Origin: an archaeon
GTDB taxonomy: Archaea > Asgardarchaeota > Thorarchaeia > Thorarchaeales > Thorarchaeaceae
Reading direction: 5' to 3'
Length of the DNA stretch: 64,000 nucleotides
NCBI GenBank assembly: GCA_024276825.1
Contig: JAJRWI010000042.1
Span: 32,001-96,000, forward strand
In this document: positions 26,711-43,488 of the stretch, piece after piece
Layout of the letters: each line of letters starts with the position of its first letter
Numbering within the stretch: position 1 is the first letter of the stretch
Position numbers and translations under genes: made by a program
The notes under the pieces: generated by a model
What the model was told of the DNA's origin: nothing
What the model saw: the letters and a program-made list of their open reading frames with translations, nothing else
Database searches by the model: none

Positions 26711-27727
26711 TCACTTGTGTTTGAGACCTGTCCACAATGCATCAGTTTCTGGTCGTGGCAGTAATGAAGATTGTGAGTCCTTGATGAGTAGTCGTCTTGC
26801 TGGGTCATTAATGGTCTTCCCAATCACAGTTGCATCAACGCCTGACCTTGTGATGGCATCAATCACCTCATCAACCTTGGAATGACTACAAGTCAGTAGC
26901 ATAGTCCCACTTGATATCAGACTATAGACATCTACTTCAAGAGCATCACATATCTTGCTAGTCACAGGATGAATAGGTATCATATCATGATTAATCTTGC
27001 AACCCACATTGCTTGCATCACAAATCTCATGAATGCCCCCAAATACTCCTCCCTCAGTAGGATCATGCATCGCAGTCACATAGCCTGTTTCAAAAGCGGC
27101 AATGCCTTCAGCAACGACACTGATTTGAAACCGCATCTGCTGGGCTTGATAGAGAACATCATCAGGCACCTTTCCATGAAGATAGGAACTACATTCGGTG
27201 GCCAAGATTGAAGTCCCCTCAATAGCAGCAGTTTTTGTCATGATTATTGCATCACCTGGCTGTGCTCCAGAAGAGGTGACATATTTGCCATGTTTGGTCA
27301 ACCCATGCATGATTCCAACAATTATCGGGTGTGAAACCGCCTCAGTTATCTCAGTATGGCCTCCCACTACAGCGATGCCAAGTGATCTTGCAGCCTCATC
27401 TATCTGCAACATTATTCTTTCAAGGTCTTTAGAGGTAGAGCCATCAGGGAGAAGTATTGATGCAAGAAACCATCGAGGGCGTACGCCAAAGGTAGCAATA
27501 TCATTGGCATTGATATGAACTGCAAGCCAGCCAACATCCTCAATTGACCCCGTGATTGGATCGGTGCTTGCAATGAGATCCTTATCGCCAATCCTGATGA
27601 CAGATGCATCCTGACCTATTTCTGGACCGATGATCACATCCGAGTCGCTAGCACCAAGGTTCTTGAAGACTATCCGTGTCAATATTTCTGGAGGGACTTT
27701 TCCTGGCTTCAATTGAACATGCTCCAT
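26711..27727 (-). CDS. AIR synthase-family protein (HypE/PurM-like)
   Basis: GKVP, GQDASV, STDPITG, HINANDIA, GGHTE, MHDPTEGG, LISSG. Confidence 0.88.
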   Translation of the reverse strand: MEHVQLKPGKVPPEILTRIVFKNLGASDSDVIIGPEIGQDASVIRIGDKDLIASTDPITGSIEDVGWLAVHINANDIATFGVRPRWFLASILLPDGSTSKDLERIMLQIDEAARSLGIAVVGGHTEITEAVSHPIIVGIMHGLTKHGKYVTSSGAQPGDAIIMTKTAAIEGTSILATECSSYLHGKVPDDVLYQAQQMRFQISVVAEGIAAFETGYVTAMHDPTEGGVFGGIHEICDASNVGCKINHDMIPIHPVTSKICDALEVDVYSLISSGTMLLTCSHSKVDEVIDAITRSGVDATVIGKTINDPARRLLIKDSQSSLLPRPETDALWTGLKHK

Positions 27728-27879
27728 TGGTTTGGTGCGCATGGGTCCTGTTGCTGATGCATGAAAAGACAATTCATTGACACCCAGACTGGGCTCTCCT
27801 TGCTCACTATGACACCAGCCATTTGTTCCCATGCGCCGCTGGATTAAGAACAGTATCCGCATATAACGGATTTCATGAG

Positions 27880-29307
27880 TCACCTTGCAAGATATTCTTC
27901 TGCGGCCTTTAGGGTTGCAGGATCGATTTTTCTGACTGCTTGTGTCGAAGCGATAAACTCTGACAGGACCGAGTTCATCTTCATGACCTCATTGGCAAGA
28001 TAGGTTCTTCCACCGGCAATTGAAGCAATGAGATAGGAAGAGAATGACTCACGAAACTTTGGAACAGAGAGTATTGTTTCTACAACTGATGAGAAACCAT
28101 CCTTTTTCATTCTTAGAAATGTTGCAAGCTCTAGCGCATCATGGTAGGGCCTCTTGAGAAGCTTTACCCAATGAATCTGTCCAGTGTTTACATTTATCGT
28201 CACTAGTCTTATTCCATTCTTCTTAACAAGACGAGCAGCTTTGACAAGGTCTCGCACGGGTGTGAATTGAGCATGGCCTGGACCCACAGACTGAGCAAGA
28301 GGTATGTTTGGTGCAAAGTCGGAAACCATAATTAACAAGGGTTCAATATTCTTGTTTCTCATCCTCTCACGACGAACAGTTTCTATTGCCTTCATAATGC
28401 CCTCTGCAAGAGGTGTGAGACCAGAAATCCGCAGTCGAGCCAAACCCCTATAGAGCTTGTTCCAGTTAGTCGTTGGAGTCTGAACTTCAATCGCACCACT
28501 GTCCTTGAATGCAATAATCCCTACACGATCCTTTGTTCCACGGGTTTCGTGCTCGATGCGGCCAATTATCTTTCGGACCTCTTTCATATAGCCCTTCATT
28601 GACAAGCTGACATCTATTATCAGAATGATTGTGAGCGGTGTCTTTCCTGCAAACACTTTCTCACGTATATCGCTTGGCTTAATCTGAATCCTGCTACCGG
28701 GAACAAACTTTCCAGATCTTGCCACTGCCGCCATAACAGTTGCGTGAACATCAATACTTGAGGCCTCGCCAGTCGGTTGACGAGATCTGAATGGCCGCCC
28801 ATGTGTACTATCGGTTGATACCATTGAACCTAGGGATCTCGAACTTGTGCTTCTGTCGATCCAGCCGCCAGATGAAACTCGAGACTTGACCATTGCTCGA
28901 ACCCGCAGCTCATCTAAGTCGAATAGTTCCTCACCAGAATCGAGGTCAGGAAGCTTTACAAAGAATCCAGAGTCGATAGTCAGAGGATCACGAATGTCAG
29001 ACTTGGAGCCATAGAGCTTAGACTCGGGCTTGGACTCGTATCTTCGAGTAGCAGTGCCCCATTCGTCCCCAGGCTCTGGTTTAGCACGGCCAGAATCCAC
29101 AGTATCGATACCGGCAGCGGGTCCAGAAACCCGTTTCATCATTATGCGAAGCCAGTACTTGATGAGTTTATAGATAAATGGAATATATACTATCGTATTG
29201 ATTATTAGAATTGGCAATGGAGGCAAAATTCCTATAGAAGCACCAAGCAACACATTGAGGGGAGAGAAGAATATCCATGAGATATATGTAAATGCCACAA
29301 TCAACAT
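27880..29307 (-). CDS. vWA-domain half of a ChlD-like chelatase subunit with TM hairpin; probably reached by -1 frameshift from upstream AAA+ ORF
   Basis: IDVHATV, DIREKVF, MIDAS DVSLS, GLTPL, VSD; frame stays open upstream to the A10 tract at 29366-29375. Confidence 0.85.
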   Translation of the reverse strand: MLIVAFTYISWIFFSPLNVLLGASIGILPPLPILIINTIVYIPFIYKLIKYWLRIMMKRVSGPAAGIDTVDSGRAKPEPGDEWGTATRRYESKPESKLYGSKSDIRDPLTIDSGFFVKLPDLDSGEELFDLDELRVRAMVKSRVSSGGWIDRSTSSRSLGSMVSTDSTHGRPFRSRQPTGEASSIDVHATVMAAVARSGKFVPGSRIQIKPSDIREKVFAGKTPLTIILIIDVSLSMKGYMKEVRKIIGRIEHETRGTKDRVGIIAFKDSGAIEVQTPTTNWNKLYRGLARLRISGLTPLAEGIMKAIETVRRERMRNKNIEPLLIMVSDFAPNIPLAQSVGPGHAQFTPVRDLVKAARLVKKNGIRLVTINVNTGQIHWVKLLKRPYHDALELATFLRMKKDGFSSVVETILSVPKFRESFSSYLIASIAGGRTYLANEVMKMNSVLSEFIASTQAVRKIDPATLKAAEEYLAR

Positions 29308-29360
29308 GATTGAGATTATTGTCCCTTTTATGGGATTGCCACGGGGCTTTCTGACATTAC

Positions 29361-30575
29361 TTACCTTTTTTTTTTACCCTTCTGATCTCCCCACTGGGCA
29401 AAAGTGTCCTGTCGACCAAACGAACCACCACTATAACGAGTCCCACTGCCCGCCTCTTCAGATTCGTCATCCTTGTCTTTCGGAACCTCTGTGGGCGACT
29501 TTCGCTTGGTCTTCTTCTTCGAGAGTTCAGCAGCCTTCACAATAGCTGTCTCAATCTCACTGGGGGCAGGAGGTTCCAATAGTCCACCACGTCGTGTTCG
29601 ATGACTGAGAGTCAACTGGGCGGCCAGCTTCATGTCCTCCAGAGAGACCTCAGTCCTGCCCTCAAAAGCAGCCATTGTGATTGAGGTCTTGCTGATTATT
29701 ATATCGGGCCTTACGCCATCCACCTCAAGAGCATCACATGCCATAGCAATCGCATGCAACTTGTCTTCTGGAAGCATCACATTGGGCAATATCTCACGAG
29801 CTTTGACTATTCTGTTCCGAAGATGTTCCTGTTCTTCAGCCCATTTCTCCCTGAACTCTAGTGGGTTCTGTTCAAAGTTCAAGTTGCGTCTGACAAGTTC
29901 CATCCTATCCTCAATCGTGAGGTTTCTGCCAACAGCGACATGAAGTGGAAACCTATCCAGCAATTGTGGTCTGAGCTCCCCCTCTTCAGGATTCATTGTA
30001 CCAATCAGAATGAAGTCGGAGGGATGCGAAATTGAGATACCCTCACGTTCGATAACATTGAACTTTGTAGCAGCAGCATCCAGAAGGTCATCAACCAAGT
30101 GATCGGGTAAAAGGTTCACCTCATCCACATATAGAACATTCTGATGGGCCTCAGCCAGAATGCCAGGCTTTAAGGCTTGAATACCTTCTTGCAAGACACG
30201 TTCAATATCAATCGACCCAATGAGCCGGTCCTCAGTTGTCGACAGGGGAAGATTAACAACACGCATCTTCCTTCTGACAACTTTCAGTTCCTCACCCGCA
30301 TGCTTGCGTCTCTTGCAGTCCTCACACATCATCTCTTCATGATAGGGATTGCATCCAAACTTGCACCCCTCGACAACATCGACCTCAGGAAGCAGATCAG
30401 CAAGGGCACGCACTACGGTTGTCTTTCCAGTCCCTTTGGGTCCGGATATCAGCACGCCACCAATTCGGGGATTTATCCCATTCAGAATCAGGGCAAGTTT
30501 GAGCCGTTCAAGGTCAACCACAGCACTAAAGGGCAAGACAACACGTGACGCTTCAGTCAAGTTCATTCGTCCCAT
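29361..30575 (-). CDS. ChlI/ChlD-like AAA+ chelatase ATPase (5' part of frameshifted chlD-like gene)
   Basis: [57 protein letters not shown]. Confidence 0.93.
29365..29375 (-). other. Candidate -1 programmed frameshift / slippage site (A10G)
   Basis: GGT AAA AAA AAA AGG TAA; -1 frame open only from this run onwards. Confidence 0.75.
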
Positions 30576-41200: not shown

Positions 41201-43488
41201 AAATGTAAAGGTGATGAATCCCCTCACCTGGAACCATGGTGACATAGTATGGACTTGCAAGCGTTGCATTTGAGCCGCCATCAAACCGATACTGGACAAC
41301 ATCAACCCCTGCATATTCATCAGACACATTAAGATAGATACGAGTAGATGATTGAACCACCGAGTCATTTGCAATTCCGAAGAGCGCAATCTCTGGTGCT
41401 ATAGTGTCATTTGTGAACTGGGTTATGAAGCAGTCATAGTTTCCATTAGGTGTATTGTCGAAGGCATTTCTTGTCACAAAGTTTGAAGACCCTGTTTGCC
41501 CTGCTACAGTGATGTTCCCATCGGATGACACTGCAAGTTCATATGCATTATCTGGACCACCCCCTCCAAGATACGTACTGAATATTAGACCAGATCCATC
41601 ACTCTTGAACACTGTCACTACAGCCTCACTACTAGCTGAGTACTGAGCTTGTGTCGCCAGAAGCACGGGATAGTTTGAACTCAATGAGTATCCAGTGAGA
41701 TAGACCTTGCCGTAGGTGTCAACATCAACGTCATACATGCAATCATCATCAGACCCGCCAAGATAGGTAGAGAACGCAATTGATGCACCAGAGGGGTTGA
41801 GCTTTAGTAGAAATCCATCCATATTTCCTCCTAGCGTTGTGTCATAGGCTGACACTGTATTCATGTCAGATGAGGCTGTATTACCAGTCACATAAATTGA
41901 CCCAGATGAATCAACTCTGATCCCATAGCCATGTTCGACAGCACTGCCGCCCCAATAAGTGGAAAAGACTAAAGAAGACCCGTCATTTGTGAATTCCATG
42001 ACGAATGCATCAAAAAGGTCGGTATTGGGATCAACTGCATTTTTGAGCGGGAAGGACCCTCTCGTGTAGCCCGTGAGATAGATGTTATAATTAGAATCAA
42101 TGTCTACATCATAGGCAATATCATCAGCTGAACTTCCCATATAGGTTGAGAAAACAAGACCATTTCCTGTTGAGTTAAAGACAGTCAGAAATGCGTCAAG
42201 ATTGCCAGCATTTGAACTCTGATAGGCATTGAGAATGTCAAAGTCGGAAGAGTCAGTTTCGCCAACAATTATGCACTCGCCGGTTGAGTTCAATGCGATG
42301 CTATGTGCCCATTCATCGCCAGAGCCACCAAAGTAAGTCGAGAAAATAAGGTCAGTTCCTGCAGAGTTCAATTTGAAGAAGAAAGCATCGTATGACCCCG
42401 ATCTACTGGATTGAAACTCATTCACCAGTGGAAAGTTTAGGCTCGAAGTCCTACCAACAACATAGACATTGCCACTACTATCCACCGTAATCGAACCGAT
42501 GTCTTCAAAGTACGATCCGCCCACAAATGTACTATATATCAGAGTCTTATTAGATGCAAATTTCATCACGAAGATATCCGAATTTGAGAGGGTCGAATCA
42601 TAGGCATCCTTCAATGGGAAGTCACTGGATGATGTTGAACCTGCAAGATATATATTCCCGGTCGAGTCAATGGCAATGCGAGCCTGAGTATCAACGCTTG
42701 AACCACCCACATAAGTAGAAAATGCAACTGCAAGTGGATCGATAATAAGAGTTCTAGACGCATCATATTGAGATACCTCAATCCCATAGACACTTGGACC
42801 AATCATCCTGAATTGAGAGTCGACCAGTCCATTTTGAAAAACCATCAGGTCGCGTTCTGAGAATACATCAATCCCACCAATTTTGGCATATATCACTGAA
42901 TCATGAACCTCAATTGTGGCACCCACAACTTCAATATGAATCTGTGAGGGATCGGCATAGGGGTGCACAATGTATTCACTCTTGAGTCCTGAGGGGGACA
43001 TGAAATATCTCAAATCGATTCCTGGATACAAGTTGTAGAACCAGATCTCATCATAGGTGGGAATATTGCATAGTTGAAGATCACCGATGATGTAGTTCAC
43101 AACATGCATCTTTTTCTTAAAGCCCTGTGGAATGACCTCGTTCGATCCCATAAATTCAATTACAGTATGGAGATTATTTCCATGGGAGTCTCGACTAATG
43201 TATATCACACTCGACTTTGAGAACCCCACAGATATTGAGCTTGATGACAGATAGTAATAAACAGTGTCATTCCGCAACTGTCCTTGATTCTCTATGAATC
43301 CGCCAAATTGGGCAGTCAGAGATGATGGACTCAAAGGTAATTCACTTTGAGCTTTGAATTTAGCATTCTGAAACGGCAATGGCTTCTGCTTAGATCGAGC
43401 CATTTGATTATCATAAAATGATAATGCAATTGCCAAACTTTGAAATATCAAAACTAGCATTAGCATAATGGCAAGATTTTTTTTTCAT
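38274..43488 (-). CDS. Giant surface protein: two SBBP beta-propellers, Ig-like repeats, Thr-rich linker, C-terminal TM; natural start (43488) out of frame at an A9 tract
   Basis: FIENQGQ N-domain; many (F/Y)ST(Y/F)(L/V/F)GG..D...I.VD..G..Y..G.T.S.DFP repeats; (F/Y)ANDSAGN Ig repeats; in-frame ORF 38274-43466. Confidence 0.9.

Follow-up and report, generated by a model that had tools for sequence, protein, structure and literature searches.

A chlD-like gene of Thorarchaeaceae with a conserved poly-A run as probable frameshift site and two predicted products, a soluble AAA+ ATPase and a membrane-anchored AAA+/vWA protein

Layout of the locus and its predicted products

The window, a stretch of 64,000 nucleotides (nt) from contig JAJRWI010000042.1 of an archaeon of the family Thorarchaeaceae, carries on its minus strand a chlD-like gene that is divided between two open reading frames (ORFs; Table 1). 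The upstream, 0-frame ORF encodes an AAA+ ATPase and ends as GGT AAA AAA AAA AGG TAA. The downstream ORF lies in the −1 frame and encodes a von Willebrand factor A (vWA) domain with a metal ion-dependent adhesion site (MIDAS). Its stop codon is at 27882..27880, and its first possible start codon is at residue 23. The overlap of the two frames consists of the A10 run and 5 bases, nothing more. If a −1 slip, or one additional A in the RNA, joined the frames, the product would be 898 amino acids (aa) long. This frameshifted layout, including the fusion and its intact MIDAS, had been described in the initial annotation of the window and was confirmed in the sequence. In the public gene models, the locus appears as two genes, an 'AAA family ATPase' (396 aa) and a 'VWA domain-containing protein' (476-477 aa), the latter starting with the Met at the first transmembrane (TM) helix, TM1.

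The close bracketing of the run by two stop codons is a trait of some genomes only. Among the first 20 loci of the family, the −1 stop was at the run in 7 and 10-81 nt upstream of it in the remainder.

Table 1. Coordinates of the chlD-like gene and adjoining features in the window
Feature	Position	Strand	Description
0-frame ORF	29361..30575	−	Predicted soluble ChlI-type AAA+ ATPase, 404 aa; C-terminal K/E-rich tail and A run
A10 slippery run	29366..29375	−	Proposed recoding site
0-frame stop TAA	29361..29363	−	2 nt 3′ of the A10 run
−1-frame stop TAA	29374..29376	−	Shuts the vWA frame just upstream of the A10 run
−1-frame ORF, 497 codons and stop	27880..29373	−	Basic peptide, TM hairpin, linker, vWA, helical tail
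Conserved peptide (V/I)RNPRG(N/D)PIKGTICAI	29308..29364	−	Lies 3′ of the run and 5′ of the annotated ATG (29307); needs a frame change for translation
Two-helix membrane hairpin	29134..29334	−	About residues 14-36 and 49-80 of the vWA-frame ORF; predicted by hydropathy and AlphaFold
Disordered linker	28807..29133	−	Residues 81-189; pLDDT <50 at 81-146 and 161-189
vWA domain	28174..28806	−	MIDAS motif DVSLS at 28600-28614
C-terminal helical extension, ~100 aa	27883..28173	−	Beyond the ChlD/TIGR02442 model, whose match stops at residue 396
AIR-synthase-related gene (HypE/ThiL/SelD superfamily)	26711..27883	−	Directly downstream, same strand

The ATPase is of the ChlI type. It matched TIGR02030 (BchI-ChlI; E 2e-119, 398 bits, under the equivalog cut-off of 467), positions 2-350 of 641 in the NCBIfam model TIGR02442 ('putative cobaltochelatase'), and the Pfam families AAA_5, Mg_chelatase and AAA_lid_2. 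Its matches among solved structures were ChlI (6l8d, E 1e-101) and BchI (1g8p, E 1e-86). The ATPase motifs that were read, the sensor and the arginine finger among them, were intact: Walker A GPKGTGKT at 45, Walker B VLYVDE at 147, GTMNPEEG at 192 and RPQLLDRF at 202. The scores did not place it among MoxR-type ATPases (AAA_3, 18 bits; bpMoxR, 23 bits; cut-off 27 for each), and those of the ChlI models were far higher.

The vWA-frame ORF matched positions 409-616 of TIGR02442 (E 2e-29) and also TIGR02031 (E 3e-21), all below the equivalog cut-offs, as well as Pfam VWA_2 and VWA. The best solved relative of its vWA part was BchD (2x31). The MIDAS motif DVSLS corresponds to D254, S256 and S258 of this ORF, and DxSxS was invariant across 21 aligned sequences. 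A Foldseek search returned generic vWA matches only, and a protein-atlas search with the C-terminal extension returned no named look-alike.

A hydropathy scan of the 404-aa ORF found no hydrophobic segment. The vWA-frame ORF has two, at residues 18-36 and 49-67 (mean Kyte-Doolittle values 2.2 and 2.0). For this ORF, AlphaFold with an alignment of 21 sequences as input predicted helices at 14-36 and 53-80 (predicted local distance difference test score, pLDDT, ~85), disorder at 81-189, then the vWA fold, and then helices at 397-496 with pLDDT of 80-92. The hairpin is Lys/Arg-rich in its flanks on both sides and has a loop without charge; from these features, the positive-inside rule predicts that both the AAA+ and the vWA parts are cytoplasmic. 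The acidic/Pro-rich soluble linker of ChlD in class I chelatases is replaced here by the hydrophobic hairpin and a 110-aa disordered linker. These predictions agreed with the earlier proposal that the locus specifies one soluble and one membrane-anchored product.

Conservation of the junction and of the TM-type architecture

Of 76 genomes sampled from the same GTDB family, 66 had an ortholog, and the junction was read in 62 genomes from 15 genera. The vWA frame was at −1 in 54 of the 62 (87%), with a run of A9 in 42, A10 in 8, A11 in 3 and A7 in 1. In one other genome, the junction was unreadable because a contig end cuts the locus. The frames were continuous in five genomes. Four of these (G013, G113, G223 and G285) each had one A more than split members of the same genus, and the fifth (G264) was interpreted as an A11 run in which G replaces the first A. 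One added A yields a functional long protein. In the remaining two genomes, the vWA frame was at +1: G129 (L054) had lost 1 nt just upstream of an A9 run, and G159 (L069) had A8. In both, the fusion would be restored if the RNA lacked one A.

A run of A9-A11 occupied the equivalent place in 60 of the 62 genomes. One exception is the A8 of G159. The other is G299 (L032, about 303-309), where the main run is broken (AAAAAGAAAC) and an A7 followed by the 0-frame TAA lies 15 nt downstream, with the vWA frame still at −1. In the genus of G299 and L005 (G011), a second A7 run with the 0-frame stop TAA directly after it was seen 15 nt past the main run.

The start of the run falls in all three codon positions, differing by lineage, and flanking substitutions (A9+C, A10+G, A11+G) alter the run length and leave the −1 relation unchanged. 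The maintenance of this relation across A9, A10 and A11 and across three run phases points to the frame relation itself, and not one specific run length, as the conserved feature. Within the run, all the Lys codons were AAA in 24 of 24 loci. For the Lys of PIKG, 15 codons downstream of the run, AAG was used in 14 loci and AAA in 6.

In the vWA frame, the ratio of nonsynonymous to synonymous differences (pN/pS) was 0.22 over the 17-19 codons that separate the run from the annotated ATG; read in the other two frames, the same stretch gave 1.32 and 1.40. In most relatives, the fused product would read GKKKTPKKIR at the junction. Entropy at the three codon positions of this junction peptide was 0.64, 0.40 and 1.38 bits, highest at the third. 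In a second calculation, pN/pS was 0.275 for the junction peptide and 0.276 for the vWA domain, and it was 0.28-0.47 in every segment of the vWA-frame ORF, which was intact in about 60 genomes. The recoding proposed in the initial annotation was supported by the orthologs: the poly-A run, the −1 register and the TM insert were conserved, and the junction peptide was under purifying selection in the −1 frame.

The window's genome (2.94 Mb, 43.6% GC) contains 27 A/T runs of at least 9, fewer than its composition predicts. For length 9, 16 were observed vs 34 expected; for length 8, 40 vs 121. Nearly all the runs of at least 9 fall outside long ORFs, and the A10 run is the only one in the genome that bridges two long ORFs in different frames. 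The A10 run is not a chance feature. The two- to threefold rarity of A/T homopolymers of 8-9 in this genome is consistent with selection against slippery runs. Elsewhere in the window, at 43477-43485, T9 on the plus strand (A9 on the minus strand) lies 24 codons into the 5′ end of the open frame of a 1733-codon minus-strand ORF.

Outside the family, related proteins have the same architecture. In a library of 1.84 billion representative proteins, no more than five matches reached E 1e-30. The closest relative outside the family was a continuous protein of 862 aa, and hydrophobic helices, one or two per protein, were seen near residues 380-470 in many matches of 800-1000 aa. The named members of this TM type belong to Thorarchaeota, Promethearchaeota and Bathyarchaeota, and all TM-type members share the order AAA+, basic segment, two TM helices, linker and vWA in the alignment. 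The alignment search for this type, which was keyed on AAA+ motifs, returned mostly classical non-TM chlI/chlD loci of bacteria and methanogens, with 2 of 80 being of the TM type.

In the sister family and in other archaea, this architecture is encoded by one continuous ORF of 820-900 aa. In a quick maximum-likelihood tree, the continuous f12 genes formed the sister group of the window's family (98% in the Shimodaira-Hasegawa-like approximate likelihood ratio test, SH-aLRT), within a clade that is mostly of the TM type. The ORF was uninterrupted (856-892 aa) in 19 of 19 sampled f12 genomes, where the equivalent Lys codons are AAG AAG AAA and form no run. A different arrangement was found in Bathyarchaeia (L094, 5690-9238): only 7 nt lie between a separate chlI-like gene of 387 aa and the TM-type AAA+-vWA gene (792 aa) that follows it. 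Two genes serve here in place of the single recoded gene of the Thorarchaeota family. No second ChlI-like gene was found in the window's genome. TM-type genes therefore occur in three arrangements: continuous only (f12), separate chlI with a TM-type gene (Bathyarchaeia), and recoded (the window's family). The initial annotation had singled out the two TM helices just after the shift site as unusual. They are present, but they are not unique to this gene; the TM insert defines a wider archaeal subfamily in Asgard archaea and Bathyarchaeia.

Split pairs of chlI-like and vWA genes of the non-TM type were also seen in other Asgard families (L076-L083; genomes G284, G214, G141, G254, G260, G052, G066 and G029). 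One genus had A10-A11 at −1, with one member in frame, and three families had TTTTTT-CGY at +1. CobN was absent in 4 of the 5 genomes checked among those with split non-TM pairs.

Probable recoding and its alternatives

We favor programmed recoding of the published frameshifted chlD (fs-chlD) kind, yielding both products, with a probability of roughly 0.85. Standard decoding would halt two bases past the A10 run and give the soluble 404-aa ChlI-type ATPase. In a fraction of expression events, an extra A inserted by RNA polymerase, or a backward slip of the ribosome by one base on A_AAA_AAA, would bring decoding into the −1 frame at the run. The shifted product of 898 aa would combine the same ATPase module with the basic segment, the two-helix hairpin, the disordered linker, the MIDAS vWA domain and the helical tail. 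One promoter would then supply a soluble ATPase and a membrane-tethered ATPase-vWA adaptor, and the short and long products would probably co-assemble, as ChlI and ChlD do. Recoding might set the ratio of soluble to tethered subunits. The anatomy of the gene, the conservation of the run and of the −1 relation, the coding constraint over the junction and the lack of CobN are direct observations; from them we infer the occurrence of the slip, its frequency and level, the co-assembly, the topology and the substrate.

The strongest alternative, which we consider improbable, is that of two ordinary adjacent genes: a ChlI-like ATPase whose Lys-rich tail is encoded by the run, and a membrane vWA protein initiated at the conserved Met at 29307. 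Gene callers do annotate two separate proteins, TM1 has at least one ATG at its beginning in 24 of 24 inspected loci, and the Bathyarchaeia locus shows a separate chlI before a TM-type chlD-like gene. However, the 17-19 codons before this Met are constrained like the vWA domain, and in the vWA frame only (pN/pS 0.22-0.28). Ordinary start codons are also missing from them in most loci. In the first 20 loci, no ATG, GTG or TTG was found between the upstream stop and the annotated Met except for a GTG at a conserved Val/Ile position in 4, and for L007, which has an ATG upstream of the run. A GGGG stretch 17-20 nt before the ATG is too distant for a Shine-Dalgarno site. Two separate genes would leave unexplained the all-AAA run of A9-A11 kept in about 60 genomes, the clean fusion in the variants with one more A, and the continuous nearest relatives.

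Slightly less probable still is an event at the DNA level, whether a homopolymer error in sequencing or assembly, a pseudogene, or phase variation by slipped-strand mispairing, with no recoding in RNA or protein. Homopolymers are error-prone and hypermutable, and run length does vary among the genomes (A8 to A11), with five in frame and two at +1; the A8 case, G159, is on a 916-kb contig, possibly from a long-read assembly, and an in-frame version of 889 aa (P0164) is close to split relatives. Against this, 87% of the 62 independent assemblies are in the same −1 state, which survives substitutions that change length and phase; neither miscounts at random nor phase variation without bias would preserve it in this way. 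A pseudogene can be set aside, since every genome has an intact downstream ORF that evolves under purifying selection, and this selection would be hard to explain if a majority 'off' state made no long protein. Length change in the DNA may accompany recoding.

Several points weigh against programmed recoding, or against parts of it as set out above. The case for the slip itself is comparative. In each of the 24 loci, the first TM helix opens with an ATG, or with a GTG or TTG followed by an ATG, and independent initiation may add a TM-vWA product without the ATPase. The +1 relation in G129 and G159 is beyond rescue by a −1 ribosomal slip. RNAalifold gave 0 conserved pairs in the 100 nt downstream of the run (24 orthologs) and 0 in the 90 nt upstream of it (23 orthologs). 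No separate chlI gene was found in five f12 genomes checked; with neither a run nor a separate chlI in f12, a soluble ATPase is not obligatory for the TM-type subfamily. Finally, no neighbor was common to the five TM-type loci outside the family (L027, L028, L029, L094 and L162).

The initial annotation had noted small hairpins after the run. The hairpins exist, and we rejected them as a recoding signal: they reflect complementarity between Pro (CCN) and Gly (GGN) codons, none of their pairs was conserved, and the 90 nt past the run in the window sequence folded with z = −1.18.

As to the mechanism of programmed recoding, it may be slippage of RNA polymerase rather than ribosomal frameshifting. 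The junction has the marks of transcriptional slippage, namely A9-A11 in three phases with no conserved structure. The run length of at least 9, the variable phase, the lack of a stimulator and the two +1 genomes lean to the polymerase. The A7 of G299, directly before a stop, leans to the ribosome.

Possible function and comparison with known systems

Of the features of class I chelatases, a ChlI-type AAA+ module with intact motifs and a C-terminal MIDAS vWA domain similar to that of ChlD/BchD were present here. A ChlH/BchH/CobN subunit, tetrapyrrole synthesis by the organism, and a soluble acidic/Pro-rich linker were not. For CobN/ChlH (PF02514), no match was found in the window's genome, which is 98.3% complete, or in any of 81 genomes of the family; control genomes matched as expected. 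HemB, HemC and CbiX were not found in the window's genome either. A chelatase role is unlikely because of the lack of CobN/ChlH in the family and of HemB, HemC and CbiX in this genome. The same observations strengthened the suggestion, made in the initial annotation from the lack of cobN/chlH in the window, that the protein is a membrane remodeller rather than a chelatase, a view that we hold to be somewhat the more probable. The window's genome has six genes with B12-binding domains, and corrinoids are therefore probably imported. A genome carrying both types of gene (G031) has classical chlD genes of 660-685 aa adjoining cobN, and an 889-aa TM-type paralog on another contig.

With no CobN/ChlH in the family and no tetrapyrrole synthesis in the window's genome, the machine would most likely be an ATP-driven vWA/MIDAS remodeller or a cofactor-insertion chaperone at the membrane, and not a porphyrin chelatase. 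A more specific proposal, which we put forward only tentatively and consider rather doubtful, is that transcriptional slippage by the archaeal Pol II-like RNA polymerase has been selected throughout the family and sets the ratio of soluble to tethered forms of a previously uncharacterised, CobN-independent membrane AAA+/MIDAS chaperone of Asgard archaea and Bathyarchaeia. Such a chaperone might supply membrane-associated enzymes with metal or with salvaged corrinoid cofactors.

The gene order thrC-like gene, recoded gene, AIR-synthase-like gene and surE was complete in all the family loci checked. This synteny may merely reflect relatedness. The AIR-synthase-related gene followed the vWA ORF in 20 of 20 family loci checked, and its closest models, HypE, ThiL and SelD, were below cut-off. 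The listed ORF is probably too long at its 5′ end, with the true start around residue 30-55. It does not adjoin the TM-type gene in the sister family. In L029 (3290-7783; genome G033), a TM-type chlD-like gene with ~4-5 predicted TM helices lies directly after genes for a URO-D-family methyltransferase and a B12-binding corrinoid protein, with a TnpB/IS605 OrfB-like gene upstream of the TM-type gene. This neighborhood is the only hint of a corrinoid link from gene context and is too little to name a substrate.

The initial annotation correctly took frameshifting in chlD genes of prokaryotes as known. The 'magnesium chelatase' cluster of genes with a −1 frameshift, reported by Antonov et al. 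(2013), has members in bacteria and in the archaea Methanocaldococcus and Methanococcus (PMC3711429). In Escherichia coli reporters, chelatase genes with poly-A at the domain boundary gave 10% frameshifting for A7, 40% for A9 and 63% for A11 (PMC3711429). Kuznetsov et al. (2022) reviewed fs-chlD genes in all major phyla (PMC9227772). A 2021 review of recoding in archaea listed one proven −1 frameshift (fucA1), with the chelatase case only suggested (PMC8211752). The slip itself is therefore already published. New here are the membrane-anchored subfamily, the missing chelatase partner and pathway, and the family-wide conservation in Asgard archaea.

Archaeal recoding is poorly documented, and the slip site kept in ~54 independent genomes of one Asgard family makes a strong comparative case. 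It also provides a clean system for asking whether polymerase or ribosome slippage operates in archaea. Motors of the ChlI/ChlD type exist as a membrane-anchored subfamily in organisms without CobN/ChlH or tetrapyrrole synthesis, and annotations as 'Mg-chelatase subunit' are therefore functionally misleading. The two public gene models ('AAA family ATPase' and 'VWA domain-containing protein') should be merged as one recoded gene.

The gene resembles fs-chlD in having a ChlI-like AAA+ ORF followed by a −1 vWA ORF that overlaps it at the domain boundary, a conserved poly-A run at that boundary, and a small and a medium subunit expected from one gene. As in fs-chlD, continuous in-frame homologs exist and the pair is annotated as two genes. 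It differs in two elements of the predicted long product, the two-helix membrane hairpin and the helical extension at the C terminus. Moreover, fs-chlD products are read as subunits of Co or Mg chelatases working with CobN, whereas no cobN/chlH was found in the 81 family genomes. The recoding site probably had an independent origin, because it arose inside the TM-type clade, the nearest members of which are uninterrupted; this view comes from the tree described above.

According to Baranov et al. (2005), who cited the A9 of Thermus dnaX, selection against slippery runs usually becomes evident from a length of nine nt, as it does in many genomes (PMC1088944). The Thermus thermophilus dnaX run and the A/T9 slippage of insertion sequence (IS) elements share with the present gene at least nine A's, two product lengths and no need for RNA structure (PMC1088944). 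Those cases involve bacterial RNA polymerase and have experimental evidence, whereas we infer slippage in the archaeal gene. In Citrobacter rodentium tssM, transcriptional frameshifting is likewise reported in an interrupted gene of a membrane complex, where it gives two length variants, and the paper refers repeatedly to poly-A (PMC4256274). Unlike the chlD-like gene, tssM encodes a component of the bacterial type VI secretion system (T6SS) with no AAA+/vWA relation. The fucA1 gene of Saccharolobus solfataricus is, like the present gene, an archaeal cellular gene divided into two ORFs, which a −1 shift on a heptamer rich in A brings together (PMC8211752). For fucA1, the full-length product alone is thought to be functional and one species is concerned, whereas each product of the present gene could plausibly serve as a subunit and the site is kept throughout a family.

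With regard to function, the long product can be compared with NorQ/NorD, a MoxR-class pair in which an AAA+ ring and a vWA/MIDAS adaptor docking on a target serve in cofactor insertion or remodelling (PMC9976466; 9qhe, 9qh8). The two systems differ in that the ATPase here is of the ChlI type, and the adaptor, which would itself be anchored in the membrane, carries a second ATPase copy in the same chain. NorQ/NorD act on a membrane enzyme and are the best functional analogy for the recoded gene.

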